DNA of 64,000 bases. Source: an uncultured bacterium (GTDB lineage Bacteria; Bacillota_I; Bacilli_A; RFN20; CAG-826). Shown here one piece after another: positions 5,125 through 55,169 of the stretch; positions within the stretch are counted from its first letter, which is position 1; each line of letters opens with the position of its first letter. The notes beneath the pieces were generated by a model. The model did no database searches. It saw only the letters and a list, made by a program, of their open reading frames with translations, and was not told the DNA's origin. Position numbers and translations under genes: made by a program. The stretch lies in contig CASDXP010000005.1 of assembly GCA_949285455.1 (NCBI GenBank), forward strand, positions 2,756-66,755, written 5' to 3'.

Positions 5125-5179
5125 TAAGATTTAAGACCTTGTTTTTAACTTTTACGTATTAATTATTTAGGAGGAACAT

Positions 5180-5506: not shown

Positions 5507-5610
5507 ACCAGTTTACTTAAATAAATAGTATTATTAGTTTGTATTTGCTAATATAAATAAACGTAACACAAAATTAATAATAATTTTATAGATGAAAGAA
5601 GGTACATCCC

Positions 5611-8013: not shown

Positions 8014-8016
8014 TTT

Positions 8017-10109: not shown

Positions 10110-10111
10110 AG

Positions 10112-12085: not shown

Positions 12086-12211
12086 TAAAATTAATTACAA
12101 TTTTTTAACACATTGTAAAGATAATAAACAAAATTTAGTCAAAAATTTATTTATTTCATAATTTAATTGTTTTATTATTTTGTTAGTGTTTGGATAAAGG
12201 AGTTAAATATT

Positions 12212-13240
12212 ATGCCAAAACTTATGATTGTTGGTGGGACTGGTTTACTTGGCCATCACACCGCCTTAGAAGCTTTAAAACAAGGTTTTGAAGTCTCTTC
12301 ATTATCTATTGACGATGCGGACGTCGATGAAGAATTTAAAAAGAAAGTCGATATTCATATCCTCGATGTTTTCAAAGCTTCGCAAGAAGAAATTGCGAAA
12401 GCATTGAAAGGTTACGATTACATGATTTATTCGGTGGGACCGGATGATCGCGTAACCCCTAAAGCACCTGCTGATAAATTTTTCCACCAGCACTTAGTGG
12501 AAGACGCAGCGAAAGTTTTTAGAGCAGCAAGAGATGCGGGTGTGAAGAAATCTGTTTTATACAATTCTTATTTTGCTTACTTTGATCGCGAGATGCCTGA
12601 ACTTAAATTATATGAACGTCATCCATATGTTCGCGCACGAGTTGATCAAGCGAAGAAGGTGAATGAAGAAAAAGGTAAAATGGAAGTAGTAGTGCTTGAA
12701 CTTCCTTACATCTTCGGCACAGTTTATGGTCGTTCACCCCTTTGGAGAGATGTTTTCTTAGATCGTTTCATCAAAGGTAAGAGCATGCTTTTCTTCCCTA
12801 AAGGAAAAACGACGATGACAACTGTTAAACACATTGGTGAATCTGGTGTCGGTGCAGTCTTATACGGCAAGGATGGTATGCGTTATCCTATCGGCGATGA
12901 AAATAAAGATTATCACTACATGCTCAATACGATGTTAGATGAACTTTATAAAGGTACAGGTAAAAAACCACATAAAGTTCATAATGCACCGAGATGTTTT
13001 ATCGTCATGGGCGGAAAAGCGATCATGAAAGCTGAACTTAAAAAAGGTTTAGAACCAGGATTAAATTTTGGTTACATCATGAAAGATATTATGACTCGTG
13101 ATGTCGTCGTTCCAGAAGCGGTGTTAGATAAAGTTGCAAATGAACTTCATCTTACCCGTGGGGGACTAGATGAAGCTATTAGAGAAACCGCAAGAGCATG
13201 TTATCCTAATGGTTCATTCTTTGAAAAACCTAAAAAATAA
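12212..13240 (+). CDS. NAD(P)-binding Rossmann-fold oxidoreductase (NmrA/epimerase-like)
   Basis: N-terminal MIVGGTGLLGHH dinucleotide-binding motif. ATG at 12212 lies 9 nt after AAGGAG and is preferred over the longer ORF start at 12167. Confidence 0.55.
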   Translation: MPKLMIVGGTGLLGHHTALEALKQGFEVSSLSIDDADVDEEFKKKVDIHILDVFKASQEEIAKALKGYDYMIYSVGPDDRVTPKAPADKFFHQHLVEDAAKVFRAARDAGVKKSVLYNSYFAYFDREMPELKLYERHPYVRARVDQAKKVNEEKGKMEVVVLELPYIFGTVYGRSPLWRDVFLDRFIKGKSMLFFPKGKTTMTTVKHIGESGVGAVLYGKDGMRYPIGDENKDYHYMLNTMLDELYKGTGKKPHKVHNAPRCFIVMGGKAIMKAELKKGLEPGLNFGYIMKDIMTRDVVVPEAVLDKVANELHLTRGGLDEAIRETARACYPNGSFFEKPKK

Positions 13241-13260
13241 TTGATTGGGAATTTGAACCT

Positions 13261-14193
13261 ATGCCTAAATGTTTACTTTACGTCTTTTCAGGAACCGGAA
13301 ATACCTATTTAGCGGCTTCCTTTCTTAAAGACGAATTAGAAAAATTACATTACGAAGTTGATATCAAAAAAATGGAAGGTGATATTACTTCGCTTGACGT
13401 CAATGCTTACGATGTCGTAGGCATAGGTTTTCCAATCTATGGATTCAATCCTCCACAAGTCGTGCCAAAGTTTGTTAAAAAGATTGAAACGCCAAAAGAA
13501 AAGAAAAAATTATTTTTCTTTCGTACATCAGGTGAACCATTCATGTGGAATGATGTCGCCGCAAGAAGACTAGCAAAACGTTTAAGAAAAAGAAATTTTG
13601 AACTTATTTTAGATAAGCATTTTCTCATGCCTTATAACATTATGTTTAGGTATAAAGATGCTTTAGCGAAGCAACTTTATTTATATTTAAAATCACTTTG
13701 CAAGTTATTAGCGATGCAAATTCAAAATGAAGAAAATGAAGGTACGAATTACGCTTGGTATAAAAGACCATTATCGTTCGTCGCAAGACTAGTCTACGTC
13801 GTTCCTTACGTCAATAAAGCTTTTTACGTCCACGTGAATAAAAAGAAATGTAACAATTGTAATTTATGCATCAATTCTTGTCCTACGAACGCTATTTATC
13901 GTAATAAGAAAGGCAAGATTAAATTTAATACAAAATGCACCGTTTGCATGCGTTGTTCCATGTTTTGCCCGCAAGATGCCGTGCGTTTTGGCATGTTATC
14001 GCATTGGAGAGTTAACGGAGCCTACAATTTTAAGAAGTTAGAAAAAGATGAAAATATCAACCCGAATTTCATCAATAAAAACACGAAAGGATACTTCAAA
14101 TTATTTAAAAAGTATTTTAAAGAACAAAATGCCCTCCTACGAGAGCATCAAATTCCTTTACCGATCGAATTTAAAGAAGACGAAGTCTTATGA
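13261..14193 (+). CDS. Flavodoxin-like / 2x[4Fe-4S] ferredoxin fusion (EFR1-family ferredoxin)
   Basis: N-terminus LLYVFSGTGNTYLAA is flavodoxin-like. Two CxxCxxCxxxCP clusters (CNNCNLCINSCP, CTVCMRCSMFCP). Confidence 0.6.
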   Translation: MPKCLLYVFSGTGNTYLAASFLKDELEKLHYEVDIKKMEGDITSLDVNAYDVVGIGFPIYGFNPPQVVPKFVKKIETPKEKKKLFFFRTSGEPFMWNDVAARRLAKRLRKRNFELILDKHFLMPYNIMFRYKDALAKQLYLYLKSLCKLLAMQIQNEENEGTNYAWYKRPLSFVARLVYVVPYVNKAFYVHVNKKKCNNCNLCINSCPTNAIYRNKKGKIKFNTKCTVCMRCSMFCPQDAVRFGMLSHWRVNGAYNFKKLEKDENINPNFINKNTKGYFKLFKKYFKEQNALLREHQIPLPIEFKEDEVL

Positions 14194-14664
14194 TCTTAAG
14201 TATTGTTCTTTACGTTTTTCTTCTTTAATTGAAGAAAACATCAATGATGCTGCGGAAGCATCAAATAATTCCATAATACCGATAAGAGCAGGCGTCTTAG
14301 GGACGCTTTTTTCTTTTTCCCAGTTGAAGACACTTTGATAAGGAATCTTTAGAAGATTCGCAACTTCTTTTTGCGTTAATTTTTTCGATTCTCTTAAATA
14401 CTTAAAGTTTTTAGCAAATAATGTGGGGGAGAAAGTTTGGACTTCTGCGAAATCGTTTTCTTTCTTACTCTCGCAACGTAATAAAGAATCGACGTCAACT
14501 TTTAAAACTTTCGCCATCGGGGCTAGAGAAGATGATGATAAAGAAGATAACCCTTTTTCATATTTAGAGATTGCTTGCACCGTATAATTTAAGGCGTCCG
14601 CGACGTCTTTTTGCGTCAACCCTAATTCTTTTCTTCTAATTTGAATATATTCGTTTAATTTCAT
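14188..14664 (-). CDS. XRE-family transcriptional regulator with two tandem HTH domains
   Basis: 158-aa ORF. Two Cro/C1-type HTH units (..LTQKDVADALNYTVQAISKYEKG.. and ..LTQKEVANLLKIPYQSVFNWEKE..). Divergent from the YccF gene. Confidence 0.65.
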   Translation of the reverse strand: MKLNEYIQIRRKELGLTQKDVADALNYTVQAISKYEKGLSSLSSSSLAPMAKVLKVDVDSLLRCESKKENDFAEVQTFSPTLFAKNFKYLRESKKLTQKEVANLLKIPYQSVFNWEKEKSVPKTPALIGIMELFDASAASLMFSSIKEEKRKEQYLRS

Positions 14665-14870
14665 TTTTGTTTCCTTTATAGATTAATAGTATGCAAAGAA
14701 TAGCATATTTAGTCAAGTTAAAGGCTCTTTGTTCAAGATAACTTATACAACATTGATACTATTTGTTTTTCTTATGAACATAAGCGAGTTAGATTTTTAA
14801 CACTTTAGGTAATTTTGCTAGTAATTATTGAATAGCAAACTATAATGAGTAATAGGAGGTTTAAAACATT

Positions 14871-15236
14871 ATGAAGACGATAGGTAACATCTTATGGTTT
14901 ATCTTTGGTGGAGTCGAAATGGCTATCGCACAATTTCTTGCCGGTGCTTTATTTTGTATCACCATCATCGGTATTCCCATTGGGCTTCAACTTTTTAAGA
15001 TGGCGAAGTTCACTATCTGGCCTTTTGGAAAAACTGTAAACAAAGTAAAACCATCCGGATTAAAAGCTGTTCTTAACATCATTTGGGCAATTTTCTTCGG
15101 TTGGGAAATGGCACTTATTTACTTATTCATCGGCGCTATCTACTGCATTACTATCATCGGTATTCCTTTTGGCCGTCAATGGTTCAAGATGGCACATTTT
15201 ATCCTTTTACCACTAGGCAATGATTTTACTAAATAA
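14871..15236 (+). CDS. YccF-domain inner-membrane protein (two YccF repeats)
   Basis: 121-aa ORF. Duplicated ..ITIIGIP(I/F)G.Q.FKMA.F...P.G. motif characteristic of YccF. Confidence 0.65.
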   Translation: MKTIGNILWFIFGGVEMAIAQFLAGALFCITIIGIPIGLQLFKMAKFTIWPFGKTVNKVKPSGLKAVLNIIWAIFFGWEMALIYLFIGAIYCITIIGIPFGRQWFKMAHFILLPLGNDFTK

Positions 15237-15256
15237 GTAGAATAATGCAATTTTTA

Positions 15257-15286
15257 AAAGAAGGATTTATCCTTCTTTTTTTGTGC
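15257..15286 (+). terminator. Rho-independent terminator (10-bp perfect stem AAAGAAGGAT/ATCCTTCTTT + T-run)
   Basis: Perfect inverted repeat followed by TTTTTT immediately after the YccF gene. Confidence 0.7.
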
Positions 15287-15329
15287 AACAATTTTAAAAT
15301 AATTAGATGTCTATGATATAAATATAAAT

Positions 15330-15833
15330 ATGAAAAAAATTAAAAAAATATTTGCCATTTTATTTTCCTTTATCATTTTTACTCTCACTACTTCTTGTGA
15401 TGTTCCTATTCCTCCAAAAGAAATTACTACCGGCTTCTTTGGTGAAAGAGAATATCACGATTACGATTATTATGCAGAAATTTATTTAATGCACGATAGA
15501 TTTTATTTATTATGTTGGGAATATAATCATACTTGGGAAAGCGCATTAGTCACTGGCGGAATTTCTGGAGTAAGGGCTCACCCTGACGATGCTTATTACT
15601 GTCAAAAATATTATCCTTGTCCATTCCCTATTATGAAGGAAATTTTGAATGAGCGGCTTGAAAGCGGAACGAAACCTCCATTTAATGGCTTTCCAGAAGT
15701 TATTATTACTTCTTATCCTGCAACTAGAGATGAGTTAAATTCAGGGGTTACCTCTAGCGGCAGCGATATCGAATTATACAAAAAAATATACGAATATTTT
15801 GATTTGTATTGGAAGTATGGTAGTTATGAATAA
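15330..15833 (+). CDS. Putative lipoprotein (signal peptide + lipobox LTTSC)
   Basis: 167-aa ORF. N-terminus MKKIKKIFAILFSFIIFTLTTSCD. No recognisable catalytic motif. Confidence 0.45.
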   Translation: MKKIKKIFAILFSFIIFTLTTSCDVPIPPKEITTGFFGEREYHDYDYYAEIYLMHDRFYLLCWEYNHTWESALVTGGISGVRAHPDDAYYCQKYYPCPFPIMKEILNERLESGTKPPFNGFPEVIITSYPATRDELNSGVTSSGSDIELYKKIYEYFDLYWKYGSYE

Positions 15834-15834
15834 T

Positions 15835-16542
15835 ATGAAAAGATTAGTGTTGTTTTTAACTTTATTGCTTCCGCTTGCTGGGTGCGAAAACCAAGATCCG
15901 AATCTAGATTATTTATTTGCTTATTATGATGCAATGGCGCATTTAGGTGATGTTGAAGGTGCGTTAGATTTAGATAATAAACAAAGTTTAGTAAATGTTT
16001 CTTCTATTTACACTTTTTCTGATGGCTCACCTGAAGCGCACATTAGACAAGATTATGATTTAGATAATTATTATTATCATGAACTTACCACACAAGGTGA
16101 TTCGTTCATGGAAGTGTGGTTATATAAGAAAAACGAATTAGACATATTGTTCGTCATAAAGACTGATTACGGTCTTAATCGCTACTTCATTAAAGAATGT
16201 TCTAGTGAAGAAGAATTCAATCAAATGTTTGAAAAATATTCTATTAGATATATTCCCTTGATGCTTAGAGATTACGCTAATTATTCTTATGACAAAATTT
16301 ACGAAGTAAGAGAACTTCTAAACAATGAAACAGGTGTTTCTTTTAATAAAGATACGAAACATATTGGTATCAACTATACGTCTTACTCCTATGATTGGCT
16401 ATTTAATGAATTTGGTTTAATGTCTCAATCTTATAGTTGTGAAGAATATAGTTATGAACAAACATTTACTTTTGAAACTTTTGAACAAGTAGAAGCGGAT
16501 TATTCTAATTGTACTGATATAGGAGGGGTATTCTATGATTAA
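15835..16542 (+). CDS. Putative lipoprotein (lipobox LPLAGC)
   Basis: ORF track starts at 15799. ATG at 15835 (MKRLVLFLTLLLPLAGC) follows directly after the upstream stop and gives a canonical lipoprotein signal. Asp/Tyr-rich. Confidence 0.45.
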   Translation: MKRLVLFLTLLLPLAGCENQDPNLDYLFAYYDAMAHLGDVEGALDLDNKQSLVNVSSIYTFSDGSPEAHIRQDYDLDNYYYHELTTQGDSFMEVWLYKKNELDILFVIKTDYGLNRYFIKECSSEEEFNQMFEKYSIRYIPLMLRDYANYSYDKIYEVRELLNNETGVSFNKDTKHIGINYTSYSYDWLFNEFGLMSQSYSCEEYSYEQTFTFETFEQVEADYSNCTDIGGVFYD

Positions 16543-18221: not shown

Positions 18222-18926
18222 ATGGCTATCGCAGGTGTTTCTAATTTATCGCTCGTGGATTATGATGGTTATCTAACTTATACCATCTTCTTTAGTGGTT
18301 GTAATTTTCTTTGCCCTTTTTGCCATAATTCAATTATCGTCACAAGTGTAATAAAAGAAGATGAAATGTCTTTTGAAACGATTGTCAAAGATTTAAAAAC
18401 ACGCGTGAACAAGATAGATGCAGTCTGCTTTAGCGGTGGTGAACCTACCTTAGAGCCAAGACTTAAAGAATTTATTAAGCAAGTAAAAGAACTTGGCTTT
18501 TTAATTAAATTAGATACAAACGGGACAAGACCTGAAGTAGTGAAAGATTTATTAGATGATCATCTATTAGATTATATAGCGATGGATATTAAATCATCAT
18601 TAGATGATAAATATAATTTAGCAATTGGTAAAACCTTCGATTTAACACCAATAAAAAAGACAATTAATTTATTAAAAAATAGTTCTATCGATTTTGAATT
18701 TAGAACAACTTTAGTAAATGAATTACATGATGAAAAAACACTTATTCATATGATCGAATATTTAAAACCTTTTCCTAAATTAGTGTTTCAACATTTTGAA
18801 GATAGGGGTAGAAATATAAAAAATGGGCTCCACTCATTTCCTTATGACGAAGTAAAGAAAATTATTGATAGATACCCAAATTTAAATATTGAAACAAGAG
18901 GTTATGACTCGAGTGAGTCAAGATAA
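18222..18926 (+). CDS. nrdG: Anaerobic ribonucleoside-triphosphate reductase activating protein (radical SAM)
   Basis: 234-aa ORF. Radical-SAM cluster motif SGCNFLCPFCHN. Convergent with trxB and adjacent to nrdD. 25-nt 3' overlap with trxB. Confidence 0.75.
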   Translation: MAIAGVSNLSLVDYDGYLTYTIFFSGCNFLCPFCHNSIIVTSVIKEDEMSFETIVKDLKTRVNKIDAVCFSGGEPTLEPRLKEFIKQVKELGFLIKLDTNGTRPEVVKDLLDDHLLDYIAMDIKSSLDDKYNLAIGKTFDLTPIKKTINLLKNSSIDFEFRTTLVNELHDEKTLIHMIEYLKPFPKLVFQHFEDRGRNIKNGLHSFPYDEVKKIIDRYPNLNIETRGYDSSESR

Positions 18927-19824: not shown

Positions 19825-22224
19825 TTAATTTTTCATCGAATCGATGTAGCCTTTGATATTGGAGGCGTTTTGATAATAGACGTAGCCATCTCCTTCTTTG
19901 CTTGGAACAAGTAAGGTTGGAGCTTGTTTAATATTATAAGATAATGTTTTTTCTTTTTCTTCTTCCGCGTCGATAGTGACGTAAGGAATATGATTCTTAT
20001 CTAACATCATTTTGACGATTTTACAATTTGGACAAGATTTCGTCGTAAAGAGCAGTAATGATTTATTTGTGTTCTTGTCATTAGTGACGACGTAATGCTC
20101 ATTTTCTTGATGACAATCTGTCGCGCGGTTCAATTCGATGTTTGAAATGCTCGCGGGGCTTACGAGGTAAGTCTTACGATCTTTAAATTCTTGTGCCTTG
20201 CCATCGTTCCAATTTTGTACAGGTCGATAATAACCAGTGATACGAGAATAAACTTCAGTCTTTTCGTGGCAGTGTGGACATTCATAGACTTCGCCTTTGA
20301 TGTAACCATGTTCCTTACATACTGAATAAGTAGGAGAAATAGTGTAATAAGGAAGTTTATAATTGTAAGCAATTTTTCTCACTAAGTTTTTCGTCGCTTG
20401 CCAAGAAGGCATCTTTTCGCCTAGGAAAGTATGGAAAACGGTTCCTGAGGTATAAAGTGGTTGAAGTTTATCTTGAATATCTAAAGCTTTAAAAATGTCA
20501 TCAGTGAAGCCGACTGGTAAGTGACTTGAATTCGTATAATATGGAGTCTTATTATCATCTGAAGCAGTGATGATGTCTGGATATAGTTTCTTATCGTGCT
20601 TAGCTAGACGATAGGCAGTCGATTCTGCCGGAGTAGCTTCAAGATTATATAAATCACCATATTGTTCTTGATAATCTTTAAGTTTTTCACGCATAAAATT
20701 AAGGGTTTTTACCGCGAAATCTTGTGCTTCTTCATGCGTTAAGTCACATCTTAACCATCTAGCGTTCAAACACGCTTCATTCATTCCTACCAAACCGATA
20801 GTGGAGAAGTGGTTATTAAAAGTACCGAGGTAACGTTTGGTGTAAGGATATAATCCAGCATTTAATAAACGAGTGATCGTATCTCTTTTAATTTTTAATG
20901 ATCTTGCACTTAAATTCATTAACTTAGTTAAACGATCATAGAAATCATTTTCATCCGTGGCAAGATAAGCAATACGCGGTAAGTTGATTGTGACGACACC
21001 AACTGAACCAGTCGATTCACCGCTTCCAAAGAAGCCGCCTGATTTTCTTCTTAATTCTCTTAAATCGAGTCTAAGACGGCAACACATCGAACGAACATCG
21101 CTTGGTTCCATATCAGAATTAATATAGTTTGAGAAATATGGGGTGCCATATTTCGCAGTCATCTCAAATAATAACTTATTATTTTCCGTATCAGACCAAT
21201 CGAAGTCGCGAGTAATAGAATATGTTGGGATCGGATATTGGAAACCACGACCATTTGCGTCACCTTCAATCATAATTTCGATGAAAGCACGGTTGACCAT
21301 ATCCATTTCTTTTTTACAATCACCATAGGTGAAATCGCATTCTTTACCACCTACGATCGCAGGCATATTTTTCATGTCGTTAGGAACGACCCAATCTAAT
21401 GTAATGTTAGAAAATGGTGCTTGCGTACCCCAACGTGATGGAGTGTTCACGCCGTAGACGAAAGATTGAATGCATTGTTTAACTTCTTTATAAGTTAAAT
21501 TATCTTTTTTAGCAAAAGGAGCAAGATAAGTATCAAAGCTTGAGAAGGCTTGCGCGCCTGCCCATTCATTTTGCATAATACCTAAAAAGTTGACCATTTG
21601 GTTACATAAAGTCGAAAGGTGAGATGCAGGGCTAGAAGTAATTTTACCAGGTACGCCGCCTAAACCTTCTTGAATAAGTTGCTTTAATGACCAACCAGCG
21701 CAGTAACCTGAAAGCATCGACAAGTCGTGGATATGGATGGCCCCGCTACGATGAGCTTGTTCAATTTCAGAATCATAAATTTCTGAAAGCCAATAATTCG
21801 CAGTCATCGCTCCAGAGTTAGAAAGAATAAGACCACCGACGGAATAAGTGACAGTGGAATTTTCTTTGACGCGCCAGTCATTGATTTTTAAATAATCATT
21901 AACCGTTTGAGCGTAATCTAATTCCGTCTTCTTAATTTGTCTTAAAGATTCATGTCTTTTACGATAGATAATATAAGATTTAGCAATATCGATATAGCCA
22001 CCTTGAATTAAAGCAATTTCGACTGCGTCTTGAATATCTTCGACATCGATGATGTCATCTTTAATTTTATTGTTGAACACCGCAGTTGTGTTAAGAGCTA
22101 ATAAACTAATAATATTATCATCATAATATTTGTTCTCTGCTTTAAACGCTCTTTCAATAGCGTTTTTAATCTTATTTAAGTCAAATTCTACAATCGATTC
22201 ATCTCTTTTTCTTACTTTGATCAT
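19825..22224 (-). CDS. nrdD: Anaerobic (class III) ribonucleoside-triphosphate reductase with N-terminal ATP-cone and C-terminal glutaredoxin/NrdH-like CxxC domain
   Basis: 799-aa ORF. ATP-cone (MIKVRKRDESIVEFDLNKI..). Glycine-radical motif RITGYYRP with CPHC zinc ribbon. A ~120-aa extension carries TKSCPNCKIVKMML, a thioredoxin-fold CPxC motif. Confidence 0.9.
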   Translation of the reverse strand: MIKVRKRDESIVEFDLNKIKNAIERAFKAENKYYDDNIISLLALNTTAVFNNKIKDDIIDVEDIQDAVEIALIQGGYIDIAKSYIIYRKRHESLRQIKKTELDYAQTVNDYLKINDWRVKENSTVTYSVGGLILSNSGAMTANYWLSEIYDSEIEQAHRSGAIHIHDLSMLSGYCAGWSLKQLIQEGLGGVPGKITSSPASHLSTLCNQMVNFLGIMQNEWAGAQAFSSFDTYLAPFAKKDNLTYKEVKQCIQSFVYGVNTPSRWGTQAPFSNITLDWVVPNDMKNMPAIVGGKECDFTYGDCKKEMDMVNRAFIEIMIEGDANGRGFQYPIPTYSITRDFDWSDTENNKLLFEMTAKYGTPYFSNYINSDMEPSDVRSMCCRLRLDLRELRRKSGGFFGSGESTGSVGVVTINLPRIAYLATDENDFYDRLTKLMNLSARSLKIKRDTITRLLNAGLYPYTKRYLGTFNNHFSTIGLVGMNEACLNARWLRCDLTHEEAQDFAVKTLNFMREKLKDYQEQYGDLYNLEATPAESTAYRLAKHDKKLYPDIITASDDNKTPYYTNSSHLPVGFTDDIFKALDIQDKLQPLYTSGTVFHTFLGEKMPSWQATKNLVRKIAYNYKLPYYTISPTYSVCKEHGYIKGEVYECPHCHEKTEVYSRITGYYRPVQNWNDGKAQEFKDRKTYLVSPASISNIELNRATDCHQENEHYVVTNDKNTNKSLLLFTTKSCPNCKIVKMMLDKNHIPYVTIDAEEEKEKTLSYNIKQAPTLLVPSKEGDGYVYYQNASNIKGYIDSMKN

Positions 22225-42760: not shown

Positions 42761-42786
42761 AAGTCCTCTCGTAGGACTTTTTTCTT
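42761..42786 (+). terminator. Rho-independent terminator after secG
   Basis: AAGTCCT ctcgt AGGACTT stem followed by TTTTTC. Confidence 0.65.
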
Positions 42787-42838
42787 TTATTTGATAAATG
42801 CTTATCATTAATAATGATATTGCTATATAATGTGATAT

Positions 42839-43648
42839 ATGAATTTAATAAGTGTCAAAGATTATGTCAAATTAAGAAAAGAAGAAATAAAAAAGGAAAT
42901 CATTTCTCTTTTACGTAAGCCAAAACTTGTCATCATTCAAATGAATGATGATGTCGCCTCTAATTCTTACGTTAAAGGGAAACTAAAAGACGCAGAAGAA
43001 TTAGGCATCGATGCATCACTAATAAAATTAGATGAATCTTTAAATGAAGAGCAATTATTAAAGATAATTGATGAAGTTAATAACCATGAAACTGTCGATG
43101 GTTTAATCGTCCAACTCCCGTTACCGAAACATATCTCTGAAAGTAAAATTAAAGAGAGCATTAATCCTAAGAAAGATGTCGATGGCTTTCATCCTCTTTC
43201 TAAATTTAAAGCTTGCACTCCGAAAGGTATCATTTCTTATTTGACTTATCTTGGCTTTAATTTCGTCGGCAAGAATGTCGTCATTATCGGAAGAAGTAAT
43301 ATTGTTGGTCGTCCGCTTGCGAAGCTTCTTTTAGATTTGAGTATGAACGTGACAGTTTTACATTCTAAAACGTCTATAGAAGATCGTAATTTTTATTTAA
43401 AACACGCGGATTTAGTTGTTTTAGCGGTGGGAAAACCTTATTTATTAACGAAAGATGTTCCTTTAAAAAAAGACGCTATTCTCGTAGATGTTGGTATTTC
43501 TAGATTAGATGGTCACTTAGTGGGCGATATCGAACCAAGAGAAGATGTTTTATTACAAACACCAGTTCCTGGAGGAGTGGGATTACTTACACGATTAAGT
43601 TTGATGGAAAATGTATTGGAGGCATATGAAGATGGAATTTCATGTTGA
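42839..43648 (+). CDS. folD: Bifunctional methylenetetrahydrofolate dehydrogenase/methenyl-THF cyclohydrolase
   Basis: 269-aa ORF. FolD motifs (..YVKGKLKDAEELGI.., ..VIIGRSNIVGRPLA.., PVPGGVG). Confidence 0.85.
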   Translation: MNLISVKDYVKLRKEEIKKEIISLLRKPKLVIIQMNDDVASNSYVKGKLKDAEELGIDASLIKLDESLNEEQLLKIIDEVNNHETVDGLIVQLPLPKHISESKIKESINPKKDVDGFHPLSKFKACTPKGIISYLTYLGFNFVGKNVVIIGRSNIVGRPLAKLLLDLSMNVTVLHSKTSIEDRNFYLKHADLVVLAVGKPYLLTKDVPLKKDAILVDVGISRLDGHLVGDIEPREDVLLQTPVPGGVGLLTRLSLMENVLEAYEDGISC

Positions 43649-44216
43649 TCATGTTGAAGTTTATGGCTTAGCTAAAGCCATTAAGGCAAGCGGGAATCCG
43701 ATGCGCACAGAAATTAATAATGGCCCGGTGGATGAAAAAGATTTGGCAAGAGCCATTAAATTAGGTACGACTCCGAAAGGGGAAGGGCATGATAATTTCT
43801 TAAAAGGTATCATCGTCCAATTTGATGTTTATGCACCTCTTTATTGGTGGAAACAAGCCCAAAGATATCATTGGTTAGATTTCATTTCTTCGCAATCGAC
43901 GATGCATTCGCTTTTAAAATTTGATGTTAAATCACAATGTGTATCTGATACGAGTGAAGAAGTATTAAATATCGTTCAAAAGATGATCGATGAATATAAG
44001 AATTTAGAAGATGAAGAACAAAAGAAAGTTCTTTGGCGAAAGATTGTCGCTTCTTTACCTTGTGGCTTTTGTTTAGGGGCTTCTATGACCACAAATTATC
44101 AACAATTAAAAACTATTTATTTTCAAAGAAGATTCCATAAATTAAAAGAATGGCACATCTTCTGCGAGATGATTTTAAATCTTCCTAAATTCAAAGAATT
44201 AGTGATTAAAGAATAA
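43626..44216 (+). CDS. Divergent ThyX-like (flavin-dependent thymidylate-synthase fold) protein, overlapping the folD 3' end
   Basis: About 197 aa. Segment FDVYAPLYWWKQAQRYHWLDFISSQSTMHS parallels the ThyX core [27 protein letters not shown], but RHR is replaced by RYH. GGAGG lies before the ATG. 23-nt overlap with folD. Confidence 0.4.
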   Translation: MKMEFHVDHVEVYGLAKAIKASGNPMRTEINNGPVDEKDLARAIKLGTTPKGEGHDNFLKGIIVQFDVYAPLYWWKQAQRYHWLDFISSQSTMHSLLKFDVKSQCVSDTSEEVLNIVQKMIDEYKNLEDEEQKKVLWRKIVASLPCGFCLGASMTTNYQQLKTIYFQRRFHKLKEWHIFCEMILNLPKFKELVIKE

Positions 44217-44479: not shown

Positions 44480-44848
44480 ATGACAGAACAAAAATATATT
44501 AACGGTTATAAGTGTATTATCGCGGCATTAAGTAAGGATGTAGATTACGATAATTATGATTTAGATGATCCTAACATTAAAATTTACGAATTAAATGATC
44601 CTATTAAATTTAAAAAGTACACCAACGCTAAATTTATTGACGAAATTGTGACGCAATGCGATGCTGATTGGTTAGATGATTATGAAGAACAAACTTTATT
44701 TCCTAATGTGTTACCAAAAGCAATTGATATTGTTTCAAAAGCGATAGCGCAAAAGGAAAACGCTGATATTATCGATTACTTATTGAAAACTAGAGAATTG
44801 ATGGAAATTGCTTTAAAAAATGATACCTTTATGGAGTTTTGTTTCTAA
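44480..44848 (+). CDS. Small acidic hypothetical protein
   Basis: 122-aa ORF, Asp/Glu/Tyr-rich, no recognisable motif. Followed by a strong bidirectional terminator. Confidence 0.35.
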   Translation: MTEQKYINGYKCIIAALSKDVDYDNYDLDDPNIKIYELNDPIKFKKYTNAKFIDEIVTQCDADWLDDYEEQTLFPNVLPKAIDIVSKAIAQKENADIIDYLLKTRELMEIALKNDTFMEFCF

Positions 44849-50167: not shown

Positions 50168-51463
50168 TTAGATACAAAACGCTGCGTAAAGAGGAATTGT
50201 TTTATTATCATCTTCAAAGGCAAAATTTTTACTCGATAGTTTGATAGCGTAAGCGGGCTTATAAGCATCCATATAAACTTTTAATCTTTTAGCTTTGCTA
50301 TTATCAGCGGATTTGACTTCGATGGGAATAAGTTTACCTTCACGTTGAATGATAAAATCTATTTCCGCTCCACGGTCGGATTCCCAATAGTAGGTGTTAT
50401 ATCCGTTGATGGAAAGTTGGACGTTAGCGTAGTTTTCAGCCATACCTCCTTTGAAGTCATTTAATTCCGGAGTCATATAAAAAATATCGTCAGGAGTTAA
50501 ATCTTTCTTCGCGGAAAGTAAACCTAAATCCGATACGTAAATCTTGAAGGCATCGATGTCACGATAATTTTCTAAAGGTTTTTTAATTTGTTCGACTTTA
50601 TAAACTTTCGATACGATACCAGTTAAACTAAGCCATTCGATAGCGTTTTCAAGCTCGGAAGCTCGACCGCCTTTTTTGACTAACTTATATTGAAAACGAG
50701 TATTTTTCTTAGAGAGTTGGACCGTAATGTTATCGTAGACGAGTCTAGTTTTTTTAATTTCATTTAAGTTGTTATATTTGCTCATATCATCAAGATAACT
50801 TGTAAGGATATTATCTTGCGTATGGCGTACAAGAATATAGTCTTTCGTCTCCACGAATTGTCTGACGCACTCTGGCATTCCACCTACGATGAGATATTGG
50901 CGGTAGAGTTCCATCGCCTTATTGTGAAGAGCGGAAGGCATAGGTGAATTAGTGTTAAAATACTTTTTAATTTGCGTTACAAGATCATCTTCTTTCATCG
51001 CGATCATAAATTCTTCCATGTCCATAGGATACATAGTTTTCATATCGACTTTACCGACGGGAAAAGAAAATTTTGAACGATTGACCGCCACACCCAAAAG
51101 ACTTCCAGCGACGATAATGTGATAATCAGGGGCCTCTTCGCAAAAATATTTTAATGAGGTCAAAGCTCTTTCACAAAGTTGTATCTCATCGAACACGATG
51201 AGCGTTTTTTCTTTGACGATCGTTTGCCCGGCAATATGAGATAAAATCGGTATCAAATATGTAGGGCTAATATTTTCTTCAAAAGTTTCATTTAGCTTGG
51301 GATTAGTTTCAAAATTAAAGTAGGCGACATTTTCATAATGGCTACGCCCAAACTCTAAAATAGAGTAGGTTTTACCTACTTGCCTCGCTCCTTGTAAAAT
51401 GAGAGGCTTACGATATTTGCTTTCTTTCCACGCTTCTAAAAAGTCGATGATTTTTCTATACAT
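50168..51463 (-). CDS. AAA+ ATPase with C-terminal DUF4143/PD-(D/E)xK-like domain (paralog of 3766..5124)
   Basis: 431-aa ORF. P-loop GARQVGKT, Walker B IVFDEIQ. C-terminal EIDFII..IEVKSA is a D..ExK motif. Confidence 0.65.
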   Translation of the reverse strand: MYRKIIDFLEAWKESKYRKPLILQGARQVGKTYSILEFGRSHYENVAYFNFETNPKLNETFEENISPTYLIPILSHIAGQTIVKEKTLIVFDEIQLCERALTSLKYFCEEAPDYHIIVAGSLLGVAVNRSKFSFPVGKVDMKTMYPMDMEEFMIAMKEDDLVTQIKKYFNTNSPMPSALHNKAMELYRQYLIVGGMPECVRQFVETKDYILVRHTQDNILTSYLDDMSKYNNLNEIKKTRLVYDNITVQLSKKNTRFQYKLVKKGGRASELENAIEWLSLTGIVSKVYKVEQIKKPLENYRDIDAFKIYVSDLGLLSAKKDLTPDDIFYMTPELNDFKGGMAENYANVQLSINGYNTYYWESDRGAEIDFIIQREGKLIPIEVKSADNSKAKRLKVYMDAYKPAYAIKLSSKNFAFEDDNKTIPLYAAFCI

Positions 51464-51826
51464 AATCTAGTTTCCTCGAATGTAATATAAAACATATTCG
51501 TGTAGAAATCAATGTTTTTTATTTCAGTTTTTACATTAAAATGCACGAATATTTTTAAAAATTATACATTATTTGACACGAATATTACATGGAATAATTA
51601 CTACACTTATAATTAAGTGTGTTAATCATAGTATTGTGTTTGTGTGATGATTTGAATAATCTTTTCAAAGTGCGTGAAGAAAATATAATGAGTTTATGAT
51701 CAAGAAAATTGATGTTGGTACTTTATAAAAACGATATCGATAAGTATTCTCATTATTAAAAATTAGTAAAGTTTAATCATTTATTTTTTAAAATATTATA
51801 TATTATAGTTAAATTAGATATGTAAA

Positions 51827-51894
51827 AGTTTTAGGAATGAAATCCAAAAACTTGTAAAAAAGAAGAAGTTTTAGGAATGTAATCCAAAAACTTG
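51827..51894. repeat. Two tandem 28-bp copies (40-bp period) of an imperfect palindrome AGTTTTAGGAATG[A/T]AATCCAAAAACTTG
   Basis: Copies at 51827..51854 and 51867..51894 differ at one position. Each has 10-bp arms AGTTTTAGGA/TCCAAAAACT with one mismatch. Lies 47-114 nt upstream of the ATPase gene at 51941, in the divergent intergenic region. Confidence 0.6.
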
Positions 51895-51940
51895 AAAAAA
51901 TAATTTATTTGATTATATTATTTATTAGGAGGGCAAAAGT

Positions 51941-53149
51941 GTGAAAATTGAGCGAAAAGATTATTTAGAAAAATTAATTGCACTTAAAGATAAGCATCTT
52001 ATCAAAATCATCACTGGCGTGCGTCGATGCGGTAAGTCGACATTGTTTGAAATTTATCAAGATTATCTTCTCACCCATGGCGTTTTAGAAGATCAAATCA
52101 TCAGCATCAATTTTGAAGATTACGATTACGAAGCTTTGAAGGAGCCTAAAAAACTATATGATTACATCAAAGATAGACTGATTGATGATAAGAAAATGTA
52201 CATATTTTTAGATGAAATTCAAAATGTGAAAGATTTTCATAAAGTCGTCGATAGTTTGTTCATTAATAAGAATGTTGATCTCTACATTACTGGCTCGAAT
52301 GCTTACTTGCTTTCGTCTGAGATTGCTACTTTAATTTCTGGGCGTTACATCGAAATAAAAATGTTACCTCTTTCATTTAAAGAATATGTTTCTAGTAGCG
52401 GTAGTGAAATTGATTTAGCAAATAAATATCGAAAATACATTGAATTTAGTTCTTTTCCTTACGTTTTAGAATTAGATGAAAATAAGGATATTATTAAAGA
52501 TTATTTAGAAGGCTTATTAAATACAATTGTTTTAAAAGATGTCGTTCAGAGAAATAAAATATCGAACATTTTACTATTCAAAAGTGTTTTACGTTTTATC
52601 TTTGATAATATTGGTTCTCAATTATCTAGTAAAAAGATTGCGGATACGTTAACCTCAAGCGGAAGAAAAGTGGATTCTAAGACGGTTGAAAAATATCTTC
52701 AAGCGTTGATGGAGTGTTACGTAATTTATCAAGCGAGTCGCTACAACATCAAAGGAAAAGAATACTTAAAAACACTAGATAAATATTATGTTGTGGATAT
52801 TGGCTTAAGATATTCTTTATTAGGCACGAGTTTTCGCGATAGCGGACATATATTAGAAAATGTCGTTTATTTAGAACTATTAAGAAGGGGACAAGAAGTT
52901 TATATTGGTAAAATTAACGATTTAGAAGTCGATTTTGTTGCGATGTCTAAAAACAACATGACTTACATCCAAGTAGCGGCTTCTATCAAAGATGAAAAAA
53001 CGTTAGAAAGAGAACTTATCCCATTAGAAAAAATTGATGATTCATATCCTAAATATATTTTGACGTTAGATGATGCGCCAGAGGCTAATTATAAAGGAAT
53101 TAAGATCGTCAATGCTTTGGATTGGTTACTAGGTAAAGTTTGGCCTTAA
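51941..53149 (+). CDS. AAA+ ATPase (AAA_14-like) with C-terminal DUF4143/PD-(D/E)xK-like domain, distinct subfamily
   Basis: 402-aa ORF. GTG start 7 nt after AGGAGGG. P-loop GVRRCGKST, Walker B IFLDEIQ. C-terminal DLEVDFV...IQVAAS. Confidence 0.65.
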   Translation: MKIERKDYLEKLIALKDKHLIKIITGVRRCGKSTLFEIYQDYLLTHGVLEDQIISINFEDYDYEALKEPKKLYDYIKDRLIDDKKMYIFLDEIQNVKDFHKVVDSLFINKNVDLYITGSNAYLLSSEIATLISGRYIEIKMLPLSFKEYVSSSGSEIDLANKYRKYIEFSSFPYVLELDENKDIIKDYLEGLLNTIVLKDVVQRNKISNILLFKSVLRFIFDNIGSQLSSKKIADTLTSSGRKVDSKTVEKYLQALMECYVIYQASRYNIKGKEYLKTLDKYYVVDIGLRYSLLGTSFRDSGHILENVVYLELLRRGQEVYIGKINDLEVDFVAMSKNNMTYIQVAASIKDEKTLERELIPLEKIDDSYPKYILTLDDAPEANYKGIKIVNALDWLLGKVWP

Positions 53150-53247
53150 TTAAGTCAAAAATATTATTAAAAAATTTATGAATTAAAATTCTAATTAAGG
53201 AAAATGGCAGCGATTTTACTTTTTGTTATACTTATAAAATGAAACAT

Positions 53248-53541
53248 TTATGCCTTTAAACACCCTATTGGGACAACTTTTATTCCATCTTCTCTTGTAT
53301 ATGCTATTTCTCCACCAGTGATGATCATGAGCAAATCTGGTTCTTTGATATTTTTGTTCTCGTTTTTTGCATTTGAAATTAGCTCTTTTAACTTTAAAAG
53401 ATGCTTTGCGCTTTCTTCAATTTGTTTATTACCTAATTTAAACTCAATCAAGGCGTAGCAGCCAACAATCAAAACTGCGCCAACACTATCTAGCATTTCT
53501 TCTAATATATTGTCTAAATATCTAGGGAAATATTGTTCCAT
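53248..53541 (-). CDS. Small PD-(D/E)xK-like protein (possible nuclease-domain remnant)
   Basis: 97-aa ORF. ..D-x13-IEFK.. (D..ExK-like) motif resembling the C-terminal domain of the neighbouring DUF4143 ATPases. No upstream ATPase part. Confidence 0.3.
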   Translation of the reverse strand: MEQYFPRYLDNILEEMLDSVGAVLIVGCYALIEFKLGNKQIEESAKHLLKLKELISNAKNENKNIKEPDLLMIITGGEIAYTREDGIKVVPIGCLKA

Positions 53542-53595
53542 TTTAAAAAATCACCCAACAAATTAACAACAAATTGATAATGAAAAGTTAACACA

Positions 53596-53657
53596 AATGT
53601 AGTTTTTTTCTGTAATTCAATGTAGTTTTTTTCTGTAATTCAATGTATATTTTTTCC
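53596..53657. repeat. Tandem direct repeat AATGTAGTTTTTTTCTGTAATTC x2 plus a partial third copy
   Basis: Perfect 23-bp units at 53596..53618 and 53619..53641, then a degenerate AATGTATATTTTTTCC. Lies upstream of the minus-strand ORF at 53541. Confidence 0.55.
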
Positions 53658-53756
53658 CATTTTAAGATTTTATTTAAAAATTTAGAAATATATCTATGAG
53701 TTTAAATATAATGTCTTGTTTGTAAGTTAAATCGCGTTTTATTTATAAGTAATTAA

Positions 53757-55169
53757 CTAAATATCTTTAATTAAATTCTTATTTTTCCAATTTCCTTTTT
53801 TCCAACGAATATAGAATGCGAGTGCGCGAATACATTCATCTAGACACGCACCGATGAAGGCACCATATATGCCTAGATTACAAACGATAGAAAGTAAAGC
53901 GCTTAACCCAACTGTAAAAAGCCAAGAAGTGGAAACGCTCATGATGACAGGAAAAGCAATGTCACCTGCAGTTTCTAAGCCTTTAACGTACACTAGATTT
54001 GTCGCTCTTCCTTGCTCTAATAAAACATTTATCGATAAACATATAAGTGCAGCGATACCGCAATATATCAAGCTCATTCCCTCGGTATTAATTGTTGGGT
54101 TATCGATAGCGGGAGCCATAATGGAAGTGAAGACAGGATAAGCGATAGCGAGAACAATTAAAGATAAGAAAAAAGAAATGAGACGCGACATACGTCCGAC
54201 ATCATAAACGATCTTATTTGCCGCTTCCTTATTATTTTCTCCAAGTAATGTTCCTTCTATGACTTGCATTGCAAGTCCTACTCCTTGTGCAAATAGATAA
54301 ATAATAGAAGTAAAAGTCATGATGTAAGTGCGAAGATTTTGATCGAGAACACTACAAGAATAATTAATGATGATCATCAAAACGAATTGAGAAAGATTAT
54401 AAGATAAAGTTTCTCCGGCGGTAGGAAGACCAATTTTTAATTGCCTTTTTAAAAGTAAAGAAGGGAAGGGCTTAAGTTCTTTTAAAGATATTTTGGTTTT
54501 AACTTTCACTTTAAAAAATATGTAAGAAATAATAAGCGATAAAAAGCGTGAGATAAAAGTAGCTAGACCTACCCCAATGATTTTTCCATCTAAATCTAAG
54601 TTTGGTATACCCCACAAGACAATTGCGACGATGATAATATTGATGACACCCATAAATATGGAAATAAGAGTTGGTTCAATCATTCTTTTATTCGCTCTTA
54701 AAAAATTAGAAAAAGCTTGATTTAAGGAATAAAAAATAAGTGATGGAGCGCTCACATATAAATATAACTTCGCATAAGGAATAATATTTATATCCACCTG
54801 CATCCAATCGAAAATAAATGGAGCAATAGCGATTAAAATAATAGCCACTAAAATGCCTAATATTAAGTTTAAGAAAATGGTTAACGGATAGATTTTTTTA
54901 ATGCCACTTTCATTATGTGCACCGCGAAGTTGAGCGATAAGAATAAGTGACGATGTAGCGAGGACGCTAAAAGAGACGATAAAAATATTTGATATTTGAT
55001 TCACTTGACCAATTGCGTTCGTGCCTTCAGGAAAAGAAGCGAACATGAATTGGTTAATATAACCAATGCCAACGGTTAAAATTAACTCGACGATGATAGG
55101 CAAGGCGAGTTTTAAGACATTTTTATTTTCTTTAAATAATTTGATGTAGTGAAAGCCATGCGTCTTCAT
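53757..55169 (-). CDS. MATE-family multidrug/oligosaccharidyl-lipid efflux transporter
   Basis: 470-aa ORF with 12 predicted TM helices in a two-lobe MATE-like arrangement. Confidence 0.75.
   Translation of the reverse strand: MKTHGFHYIKLFKENKNVLKLALPIIVELILTVGIGYINQFMFASFPEGTNAIGQVNQISNIFIVSFSVLATSSLILIAQLRGAHNESGIKKIYPLTIFLNLILGILVAIILIAIAPFIFDWMQVDINIIPYAKLYLYVSAPSLIFYSLNQAFSNFLRANKRMIEPTLISIFMGVINIIIVAIVLWGIPNLDLDGKIIGVGLATFISRFLSLIISYIFFKVKVKTKISLKELKPFPSLLLKRQLKIGLPTAGETLSYNLSQFVLMIIINYSCSVLDQNLRTYIMTFTSIIYLFAQGVGLAMQVIEGTLLGENNKEAANKIVYDVGRMSRLISFFLSLIVLAIAYPVFTSIMAPAIDNPTINTEGMSLIYCGIAALICLSINVLLEQGRATNLVYVKGLETAGDIAFPVIMSVSTSWLFTVGLSALLSIVCNLGIYGAFIGACLDECIRALAFYIRWKKGNWKNKNLIKDI

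Follow-up and report, generated by a model that had tools for sequence, protein, structure and literature searches.

A ThyX-fold protein encoded beside folD in uncultured gut Bacilli and in phages of anaerobes is a candidate divergent thymidylate synthase

The window, i.e., the whole 64-kb stretch of DNA analysed here, carries a folD gene and, directly downstream on the same strand, a short open reading frame referred to here as gene X. Genes for the anaerobic ribonucleotide reductase and its activase lie ~21 kb from X. The relevant features are as follows.

18222-18926, + strand: nrdG, anaerobic ribonucleotide reductase activase (tblastn, 50% identity to L003 NrdG)
19825-22224, - strand: nrdD, anaerobic ribonucleotide reductase (tblastn, 73% identity to L003 NrdD)
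42761-42779: terminator-like hairpin after the preceding small gene (consensus match only)
42802..42831, + strand: promoter-like site TTATCA-18-TATAAT directly 5' of folD (consensus match only)
42839..43648, + strand: folD, bifunctional 5,10-methylene-THF dehydrogenase/methenyl-THF cyclohydrolase, 269 aa
43618..43622, + strand: GGAGG, Shine-Dalgarno-like, within the folD 3' end, 9 nt 5' of the ATG at 43632 (read from the sequence)
43632..44216, + strand: gene X (predicted ThyX fold), 194 aa from the likely ATG at 43632
43632..43648, + strand: 17 nt common to the folD 3' end and the start of X (23 nt from the ATG at 43626)

The folD assignment is supported by both Pfam domains (THF_DHG_CYH, PF00763, E = 3.4e-32; THF_DHG_CYH_C, PF02882, E = 6.8e-41), and its stop is the TGA at 43646-43648. 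The X reading frame lies on the + strand, ends in a TAA stop at 44216 and contains in-frame ATGs at 43611, 43626 and 43632, as read from the sequence. The ATG at 43632 is the likely start, because GGAGG lies 9 nt upstream and because homologues (P0032 and P0121) share the N-terminal MEF of the resulting protein, which starts MEFHV; P0001 has a length of 194 aa. Residue numbers throughout refer to the 196-aa version beginning at 43626, the other alternative start being 43611. The preliminary description had given a 23-nt overlap with folD, which is correct when counted from the ATG at 43626, but the likely start shortens it to 17 nt. The reading frame that it quoted is real, the peptide FDVYAPLYWWKQAQRYHWLDFISSQSTMHS corresponding to residues 66-95. 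The possibility that X is not a gene was rejected, as the reading frame is conserved and the fold prediction is confident.

Among 80 related bacterial genomes, 79 have folD as the same-strand gene immediately upstream of X. Junction lengths in the 79 genomes, taken from the ends of tblastn alignments, range from an overlap of 16-19 nt to a gap of 34 nt, with one outlier of 250 nt, and the overlap geometry is compatible with translational coupling of X to folD. The promoter-like site and the upstream hairpin, both consensus matches only, weakly suggest that folD and X form a bicistronic unit. The pair is retained while its outer flanks vary, from SecA...UvrB-SecG to nrdD-nrdG-dCMP deaminase. 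The distant nrdD and nrdG of the window adjoin folD-X in sister genomes, and they adjoin X in many phages. A contiguous dCMP deaminase-folD-X arrangement is present in 15 of the 80 genomes. All 80 loci belong to one clade, and the synteny is therefore partly inherited. In every genome compared (77/77), X is more highly conserved than its neighbour FolD (median identities of 66% versus 57%). Prophage cargo was rejected as an explanation of this part of the window, given the housekeeping neighbours and the recurrence of the arrangement in 79/80 genomes. Metagenome-assembled genomes of the clade are labelled Coprobacillus sp. CAG:826, “Ca. Alloenteromonas,” “Ca. Enteromonas,” “Mollicutes” or “Tenericutes bacterium,” and the X-bearing lineage consists of uncultured, small-genome gut Bacilli.

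The X family is large: clustering at 90% identity gives at least 4,650 clusters, and clustering at 50% gives 2,636. Most members are from anaerobes or phages of anaerobes. The window protein shares 61-96% identity with its close bacterial orthologues. Together with the recurrent folD adjacency, these figures are far beyond what chance would produce. The family is so far unnamed and escapes naming by Pfam, NCBIfam, PGAP and UniProt. The window protein has no match in Pfam or NCBIfam (E ≤ 10) or in PADLOC, and a phmmer search of the PDB with it returned a single chance match to a viral polymerase. It reaches no curated Thy1/thyX model threshold (Pfam PF02511, NCBIfam, TIGR02170). Across the family, Thy1 is the only recurrent weak Pfam match (10 of 66 members; best E value, 1.7e-5), and P0177, at 22.1 bits, falls short of the 24.8-bit cut-off. 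A full-length match was found to PHROG 6721 (E = 9.4e-56; residues 3-195 on profile positions 6-217 of 218), a sequence cluster labelled “unknown function” for which fold, context and a proposed activity can now be offered. Long family members carry HNH/AP2 endonuclease inserts, and a Pfam scan of members with N- or C-terminal extensions revealed no informative fusion partner. The distant representatives P0121, P0123 and P0124 are located on short contigs. No described “ThyX-like” or third thymidylate synthase family matching X was found in the literature.

Structure prediction assigns X to the ThyX fold. The AlphaFold (AF2) model is of high confidence (pLDDT, 97; pTM, 0.89), and all of the top 50 Foldseek matches in the PDB are ThyX of T. 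maritima or H. pylori (probability, 1.0; E values, 3e-8 to 4e-7; TM scores, 0.58-0.70; ~19% identity). The top two matches in a viral structure library are uncharacterised proteins with 24-27% identity, which probably belong to the X family, and annotated ThyX proteins come next. A profile search of the PDB returned ThyX alone, in register, at E values of 0.5-1.5. The hhalign comparison of the family with T. maritima ThyX, in which the ThyX side was a single sequence or a narrow 31-sequence alignment (Thermotogota only), gave a local match of 45 columns at 26-27% probability, with H55 placed on H53 and R80 on R78. The Thy1 fold proposed in the preliminary description is thus borne out by the agreement of structure prediction and Foldseek and by the weak Thy1 matches in 10/66 members, while the window protein itself remains outside the Pfam profile. 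X shares with ThyX/Thy1 (PF02511; T. maritima TM0449, PDB 1O26) the predicted fold and the order of secondary-structure elements, and differs in sequence (~19% identity), in a shorter C terminus (196 versus 220 aa) and in its tight linkage to folD. Neither Pfam nor the fold search connects X with ThyA (PF00303, Thymidylat_synt), the latter search giving ThyX only. ThyA probably has the same net role as X, but its fold and mechanism are unrelated; it releases dihydrofolate and so requires DHFR, whereas a ThyX-type reaction yields THF. On the structural model, X is a ThyX-fold protein with a remodelled active site, the segments of which are as follows.

43788..43790, + strand: His55, in the motif GEGHDNF, aligned with ThyX His53; 94% conserved
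43851..43871, + strand: K76-Q77-A-Q-R80-Y81-H82, aligned with ThyX R74-Q75-W-F-R78-H79-R80
43887..43907, + strand: loop S88-S89-Q90-S91-T92-M93-H94, replacing ThyX E86-L-S88-G-R90-Y91-S
44094..44153, + strand: N157-Y-Q-Q-L...Q167-R168...H171...W176, aligned with ThyX N163...R174...H178

Conserved equivalents exist in X for ThyX residues H53, Q75, R78, P151, N163, R174 and H178. In ThyX, H53 stacks on flavin and folate (PMC11940539), R78 (the first Arg of RHR) both binds dUMP and stabilises the flavin in its reduced state (PMC11940539, PMC6514825) and R174 binds and activates dUMP (PMC6514825, PMC7226160). The counterparts of the first two, H55 and R80, are conserved at 94% and 97%, and Arg174 aligns with the invariant R168 inside a conserved N...L...QR...H segment in which Q167 is likewise invariant. 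The preliminary description had RHR replaced by RYH, with both of its Arg residues lost. The middle His and the final Arg are indeed replaced, but the first Arg is kept, R80 coinciding with R78 in an ungapped alignment with T. maritima ThyX. Within the family, R80, Y81 and H82 are conserved at 97%, 100% and 76%, respectively, and the ThyX signature RHRx7S becomes RYHx7Q (R80-Y81-H82-x7-Q90). A divergent phage subgroup has TYK instead of RYH, with Thr in place of R80.

Other ThyX residues are replaced in X, namely, R74, H79, R80, S88, R90, Y91, R147, R165, E58 and H59. Ser88, Arg90, Tyr91, Arg147 and Arg74 correspond to Q90 (67%), T92 (variable), M93 (92%), K139 (variable) and K76 (variable), respectively. 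In T. maritima ThyX, R90 belongs to the conserved arginines that bind dUMP. Mutants of Y91 are ~1000-fold slower (PMC11940539). The SSQSxMH loop that occupies this region in X is itself conserved, S91 being invariant and S88, S89, M93 and H94 at least 90% conserved. One family member is tandemly duplicated, with motif loss complementary between the copies, which is expected if a functional site is shared between subunits.

Phage genomes provide a second context for X. In a survey of 80 IMG/VR loci covering 8 kb to either side of X, NrdD was encoded in 44, dUTPase in 37, NrdG in 31 and class II ribonucleotide reductase in 9; a guanylate-kinase-like dNMP kinase was present in 23, in 15 of them as the next gene downstream. 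This niche (ribonucleotide reductase, dUTPase and dNMP kinase) is common to X and ThyX/Thy1, and the slot is interchangeable. In a set of 80 phage loci that share a single NrdD lineage as anchor, X was found in 24, Thy1 in 25-26 and ThyA in 2, and no locus held two synthase types (0/80; hypergeometric P ~5e-6, with loci counted as if unrelated). One case of replacement is that of loci L188 and L186, whose DNA flanks are 96-99% identical on both sides of a slot that holds X in L188 (99.9% to the X family in hhalign) and a Pfam Thy1 protein in L186 (108.8 bits). The L186 protein has YTH instead of RHR, and the Thy1 proteins of L201 and L237 are canonical. In all, 48 X/Thy1 same-slot pairs were found, involving 9 X loci and two different positions relative to nrdD. 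The slot directly upstream of the dNMP kinase is occupied by X, Thy1 or ThyA, depending on the phage, with ThyA in the related phages L217 and L221. Neither ThyA nor ThyX was found beside X in any X-bearing locus examined, and no ThyA- or ThyX-like sequence was detected in three complete X-bearing phage genomes (Fnu1, XP41-N3 and ProddE), of which Fnu1 additionally encodes FolD, dUTPase, NrdD/NrdG and guanylate kinase. Neither of the checks by which the preliminary description could have been refuted went against it, as a Thy1 fold was predicted and a canonical thyA or thyX was likewise absent from the 64-kb window and from ~1.2 Mb of bacterial flanks (≤10 kb per side, a weak test).

Taken together, X is probably a very divergent flavin-dependent thymidylate synthase of the ThyX/Thy1 fold that is fed by FolD. 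This reading is favoured by the conserved dCMP deaminase-folD-X operon, by the phage neighbourhoods with NrdD/NrdG, dUTPase and dNMP kinase, by the exclusion of ThyX/ThyA and the exchange of slots in near-identical phages, and by the lack of any other thymidylate synthase in complete phages with X. Between the alternatives of the preliminary description, a divergent thymidylate synthase and a paralogue of altered activity, the same evidence favours the former. X would bind flavin and dUMP and convert dUMP, methylene-THF and a reductant to dTMP and THF. FolD would supply the 5,10-methylene-THF, and dCMP deaminase, encoded directly before folD in sister genomes, would supply dUMP. X would be co-transcribed with folD, with probable translational coupling, and may, like ThyX, be an oligomer whose subunits jointly form the active sites. 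In these bacteria it would be the sole thymidylate synthase. Against this reading, R90, Y91, R147, R74, R165 and the His and second Arg of RHR are changed, R80 too is lost in the divergent phage subgroup, the window protein stays below the curated Thy1/thyX thresholds, the bacterial synteny comes from a single clade, the exclusion statistic takes no account of phylogeny, and the Thy1 protein that takes the place of X in L186 itself deviates from RHR.

The residue changes leave some room for the stronger proposal of a second flavin-dependent thymidylate synthase family, mechanistically distinct within the ThyX fold and serving as the sole thymidylate synthase of an entire order of gut bacteria and of numerous phages, which we consider possible but tentative. 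The flavin/uracil core (H53, R78 and R174) would be kept and R90, Y91 and the RHR flavin-phosphate clamp lost, and therefore cofactor binding, the flavin or the reductant could differ. The cofactor might be bound differently, or another flavin or reductant used, in a manner suited to strict anaerobes; the phages concerned would infect C. difficile, C. perfringens and Fusobacterium.

It is unlikely that X is a ThyX-fold enzyme with another product or substrate, such as a dUMP hydroxymethylase (forming 5-hmdUMP), a PolB-like dCMP/UMP C5-methylase or some other folate-dependent enzyme transferring one-carbon units to a nucleotide. The altered RHR and the exchange of the S88/R90/Y91 loop of ThyX for the equally conserved SSQSxMH would fit such a change, and the phage dUTPase and dNMP kinase modules would also suit modified-base pathways. 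ThyX paralogues of changed specificity are known, e.g., PolB, a UMP C5-methylase of polyoxin biosynthesis (COG1351) encoded in an antibiotic gene cluster (PMC7226160). It provides a precedent for divergence from the canonical enzyme within the ThyX fold. X, by contrast, is not recognised by the Thy1 profile and, instead of an antibiotic cluster, has folD, dCMP deaminase, nrdD/nrdG and housekeeping genes as neighbours. In bacteria X is a conserved core gene beside such housekeeping genes, in an operon with dCMP deaminase and folD. A change in base chemistry is also unlikely because close relatives, the phages with 96-99% identical flanks, exchange X for an ordinary Thy1 in the same slot. A base-modifying enzyme could, moreover, coexist with ThyA or ThyX, whereas X never does in the loci examined.

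We also think it improbable that X, as a functional or near-functional thymidylate synthase, is redundant with a canonical thyA or thyX elsewhere in the bacterial genomes and serves a special condition, e.g., strict anaerobiosis or a different reductant. Some organisms do possess two thymidylate synthases, mycobacteria carrying thyA as well as thyX, and the bacterial survey covered 64 kb of the source genome and ≤10 kb to either side of X in the remaining genomes. Redundancy is, however, difficult to reconcile with the mutual exclusivity of X and ThyA/ThyX in all phage loci and in each of the three complete phage genomes surveyed, with a constraint on X stronger than that on FolD in 77/77 genomes and, as a weak test, with the absence of thyA/thyX from ~1.2 Mb of bacterial flanks. 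A catalytically inactive ThyX-fold protein, acting as a nucleotide- or folate-binding regulator or assisting FolD or the reductase as an accessory subunit, would account for the loss of R90, Y91, R147 and part of RHR and for the failure to match curated thymidylate synthase models, but is very improbable given the retention of flavin/uracil-interface residues (H53, R78, R174 and N163), the (near-)invariance of replaced positions (Y81, S91 and Q167), as in a working site, the complementary motif loss of the tandem duplicate, which fits a functional site shared between subunits, and the presence of X in the slot where other phages encode genuine thymidylate synthases.

Thymidylate synthesis is essential, and we know of only two recognised enzyme families that perform it, ThyA and ThyX. 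Annotation and metabolic models depend on profiles of these two families, and X, a fold-level homologue of ThyX with thousands of members, slips through them. If the proposed function is correct, genomes with X are wrongly scored by current annotation as lacking a thymidylate synthase. If X is active, the prediction of thymidine dependence would be lifted for a whole lineage of uncultured gut Bacilli, and a gene for DNA-precursor synthesis would be recognised in many phages of anaerobic pathogens. ThyX residues regarded as “essential” (RHR, R90 and Y91) would need to be revisited, with consequences for views of the mechanism and for ThyX-directed inhibitors, and the coupling of folD to X would constitute a compact two-gene module for dTMP synthesis.

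The ORF that overlaps the 3' end of folD (here X; residues numbered from ATG 43626, 196 aa) is most economically read as a divergent flavin-dependent thymidylate synthase, and we consider this assignment probable. The features of the junction are:

42839-43648, + strand, folD, 269 aa, both FolD domains by Pfam
Start within the folD 3' end to 44216, + strand, X
43618-43622, + strand, GGAGG, 9 nt ahead of an in-frame ATG at 43632 (MEFHV...)

The 23-nt overlap in the preliminary description is correct when counted from ATG 43626. However, because GGAGG lies 9 nt before ATG 43632, homologues begin MEF and the closest homologue has 194 aa, the true start is probably 43632, giving an overlap of 17 nt. 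The peptide quoted in that description comprises residues 66-95. A promoter-like site ahead of folD and a terminator-like hairpin after the small upstream gene fit, weakly, a two-gene unit of folD and X. A 264-nt AT-rich spacer separates X from a downstream 122-aa ORF (44480-44848, + strand) with no significant match in Pfam, PHROGs, NCBIfam, or PADLOC.

The X protein has no match in Pfam, NCBIfam, or PADLOC, even at an E value of ≤10, and only a chance match in a sequence search of the PDB, while PHROG 6721 (“unknown function”) covers its full length (E 9.4e-56). Relatives number 4,650 among 90%-identity clusters, where the named matches listed all read “hypothetical protein” and lack any precomputed Pfam domain, and 2,636 among 50%-identity clusters. 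The AlphaFold2 model made from an alignment of 66 family sequences was very confident (pLDDT 97, pTM 0.89), and its top 50 Foldseek matches in the PDB were exclusively ThyX proteins, namely T. maritima TM0449 and H. pylori ThyX (probability 1.0, E 3e-8 to 4e-7, TM 0.58-0.70, identity 16-21%). In a viral structure library, the first two matches were “uncharacterized” proteins (24-27% identity), probably X-family members, followed by annotated ThyX proteins. Fainter sequence signals agree: PDB chains matched by the alignment profile were all ThyX and aligned in the same register; Pfam Thy1 was the sole family matched repeatedly by members (10/66, best E 1.7e-5; 22.1 bits against a cut-off of 24.8 for member P0177); and when T. 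maritima ThyX was compared by tblastn with the fetched loci, its best subthreshold matches lay within X. Membership in the curated Thy1 families of Pfam and NCBIfam was not reached by sequence. The confident model, the Foldseek matches, and the concordant faint signals thus show a ThyX fold, bearing out the ThyX-like character originally proposed.

The family alignment was merged with a ThyX alignment; X follows the order of secondary-structure elements in ThyX (TM0449, PDB 1O26), and ungapped local alignments of X with ThyX are in agreement.

Table. ThyX residues (T. maritima numbering), X counterparts, and conservation in the X family
Kept: H53, H55, 94%
Kept: Q75, Q77, 74%
Kept: R78, R80, 97%
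Kept: P151, P145, 100%
Kept: N163, N157, 94%
Kept: R174, R168, 100%
Kept: H178, H171, 98%
Replaced: H79, Y81, 100%
Replaced: R80, H82, 76%
Replaced: E86, S88, at least 90%
Replaced: S88, Q90, 67%
Replaced: G89, S91, 100%
Replaced: R90, T92, variable
Replaced: Y91, M93, 92%
Replaced: R147, K139, variable
Replaced: R74, K76, variable
Replaced: R165, Q159, variable (commonest, Leu)
Replaced: E58/H59, K60/G61, 65%/97%

In ThyX, R78 points toward N1/C2=O of the reduced flavin, and H53 makes stacking contacts with flavin or folate; RHR contacts the phosphates and ribityl of FAD; equivalents of R78, R174, R74, S88, and R90 hold dUMP; and Y91 covers the reacting atoms, with Y91 mutants ~1,000-fold slower (PMC11940539, PMC6514825, and PMC7226160, as a set). 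As judged from the aligned residues, X retains the flavin/uracil core, and other, equally conserved residues (SSQSxMH, Y81, Q167) take the place of the mobile active-site loop and of some of the flavin-phosphate clamp. The first Arg of RHR, previously described as missing, is present, as R80 aligns with R78 in 97% of the family. In the metagenomic member P0131 (456 aa), the X domain occurs twice in tandem, and the two copies have lost different motifs: GH, RY, and QR..H survive in domain 1, which lacks SSQS, and SSQSTMH survives in domain 2, which lacks RYH and QR. As each half complements the motifs lost by the other, this pattern suggests that different subunits may contribute to the X active site, as they do in ThyX. 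In four phage proteins that score 109-116 bits against Pfam Thy1 (L186:4692-5372, L218:2298-2972, L207:6574-7251, and L209:4284-4961), RHR is replaced by YTH or ERH and QASTRY is retained; RHR is therefore variable already within recognized ThyX proteins.

In six members (P0122, P0172, P0191, P0194, P0198, and P0185), the variable loop that immediately precedes the GH motif is interrupted, between residues ~36 and ~45 of the window protein, by in-frame inserts of ~250 aa that contain HNH_3 and in some cases also AP2 endonuclease domains. These look like domesticated or mobile homing-endonuclease insertions, and visual inspection showed no obvious intein-like junction residues. Inteins and introns are known from ThyX genes (Liu and Yang 2004, cited in PMC6514825).

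The genome collection contained 491 relatives of X, and the best 80 of these (61-96% identity) all came from uncultured Bacilli-like MAGs; many bin labels were generic or evidently wrong, and informative ones included Coprobacillus sp. CAG:826, “Ca. Alloenteromonas,” “Ca. Enteromonas,” and “Mollicutes”/“Tenericutes bacterium.” In 79/80 genomes, folD lies immediately upstream on the same strand, with junctions (from tblastn alignment ends) ranging from a 16- to 19-nt overlap to a 34-nt gap and one outlier of 250 nt; the remaining genome has nrdD-nrdG there instead. Outer neighbors vary, with SecA-PrfB-YitT-UvrB-SecG-folD-X-peptidase M29 in ~30-38 of the 80 and contiguous dCMP deaminase-folD-X in 15/80, in many cases with nrdD, a thioredoxin-reductase-like gene, and nrdG ahead of it. 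The constant pair amid differing neighbors has therefore been held together through rearrangements. X is also more conserved than FolD in 77/77 genomes (median identity, 66% versus 57%). dCMP deaminase produces dUMP and FolD produces methylene-THF, both substrates of thymidylate synthase; X would be made together with FolD in these bacteria, and FolD would supply its methylene-THF. In the window, nrdG and nrdD lie ~21 kb from X. In sister genomes (L003:654-4628; also L012, L022, L031, and others), NrdD has a C-terminal glutaredoxin domain and is followed by a thioredoxin-reductase-like flavoprotein, nrdG (opposite strand), dCMP deaminase, folD, and X. This arrangement might provide the reductase, and conceivably X as well, with a reductant system of its own.

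The family is also common in phages, being carried by 25 GenBank phage records, always as “hypothetical” or unannotated, with hosts including Fusobacterium, C. difficile, C. perfringens, Enterocloster, and Desulfovibrio, and by at least 471 IMG/VR stretches.

Table. Neighbors within ±8 kb of X in 80 IMG/VR loci
NrdD, 44/80
dUTPase, 37/80
NrdG, 31/80
DNA polymerase III alpha, 25/80
Guanylate-kinase-like dNMP kinase, 23/80
DUF3310, 16/80
DnaB, 15/80
RecD-like helicase, 15/80
Nucleoside deoxyribosyltransferase-like protein, 14/80
Class II RNR, 9/80

The dNMP kinase is the very next gene in 15/80 loci, and in viral contig L110 X directly follows folD, and a dCMP deaminase is encoded 3 kb downstream of X. 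The whole Fnu1 genome (130.9 kb) encodes X, FolD, dUTPase, NrdD/NrdG, guanylate kinase, and glutaredoxin; in ProddE (42.6 kb), X lies between DNA polymerase and exonuclease, followed by NTP pyrophosphohydrolase, kinase, and NrdD/NrdG; and in XP41-N3 (38.6 kb) it lies within a recombination and replication block. The Fnu1 and ProddE annotations contain no thymidylate synthase, seven ThyA/ThyX queries gave no tblastn match at E<0.1 in these three genomes, and neither enzyme was found in the window or any X-bearing locus fetched. The X-bearing phage loci are DNA-precursor modules missing only a thymidylate synthase.

Phage-encoded FolD adjoins X upstream at L110:7131-8564 (dCMP deaminase, 11233-11607), occurs elsewhere in X-bearing genomes (Fnu1 109906-110742, equal to L257:18907-19743; L141:13889-14662), and accompanies canonical ThyX at L237:17045-17824. 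A small DUF3310 protein, which could be a partner of X, lies directly downstream of it in 11/80 viral loci (L100-L134, e.g., L131:766-1200) and in one short metagenomic contig (L173:604-804). Fnu1 nrdD (51137-54813; L256:1137-4813) is annotated as two pieces flanking a GIY-YIG nuclease gene, probably an intron or homing-endonuclease interruption.

A second set of 80 viral loci, anchored on close relatives (63-100% identity) of the NrdD beside X in L103, was queried with X, four phage Thy1 proteins, T. maritima ThyX, one phage ThyA, and E. coli ThyA. X was present in 24, Thy1 in 25-26, ThyA in 2, and none in 29, and X never co-occurred with Thy1 or ThyA (0/80); the chance of no overlap under independence, ~5e-6, ignores relatedness and hence makes the exclusion look stronger than it is. 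More telling are near-identical genomes with X or Thy1 in one slot. Loci L188 and L186 share 96-99% DNA identity over 1-2190, 3920-4751, and 5594-16253 and nothing in the slot between, which in L188 holds an X-family gene without Pfam match (4929-5594; hhalign 99.9%, E 7e-33 to the family alignment) and in L186 a gene that matches Pfam Thy1 at 108.8 bits, together with a 71-aa ORF. In both loci the slot is bordered by one shared gene upstream and, downstream, by a conserved gene of 659 aa, presumably a DNA ligase (LigA-like). Altogether, 48 X/Thy1 pairs, involving nine X loci and two different positions relative to nrdD, match at 85% identity or more on either side of a slot that does not align. 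Sequence downstream of X in L190 and of a canonical RHR ThyX (161 bits) in L201 is 88-94% identical, and the position directly upstream of dNMP kinase is occupied by X (L219, L220, L224, L174, and L176), ThyA (L217 and L221; 182-201 bits), or Thy1 (L218 and L207). The L217 ThyA (6273-7967, 564 aa) has a ~275-aa insert relative to the 289-aa L221 protein (7248-8117), which splits its Pfam Thymidylat_synt match in two and may be an intein or endonuclease insertion. Anticorrelation is an accepted sign of two enzymes with the same activity, with precedent in ThyA versus ThyX of jumbo phages (PMC7824862).

Given the changes in the loop and in RHR, the product or the cofactor could differ from that of ThyX. 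A different product is made less likely by the swaps with ordinary Thy1 between near-isogenic phages and by the housekeeping surroundings of X, and the conservation pattern of the family makes an inactive protein unlikely. Being homologous to ThyX, the putative synthase is not a new kind of enzyme, and no description of its family was found in the literature searched or the profile libraries. X is a new and widespread ThyX variant with a rebuilt active site, whose family is invisible to current annotation.
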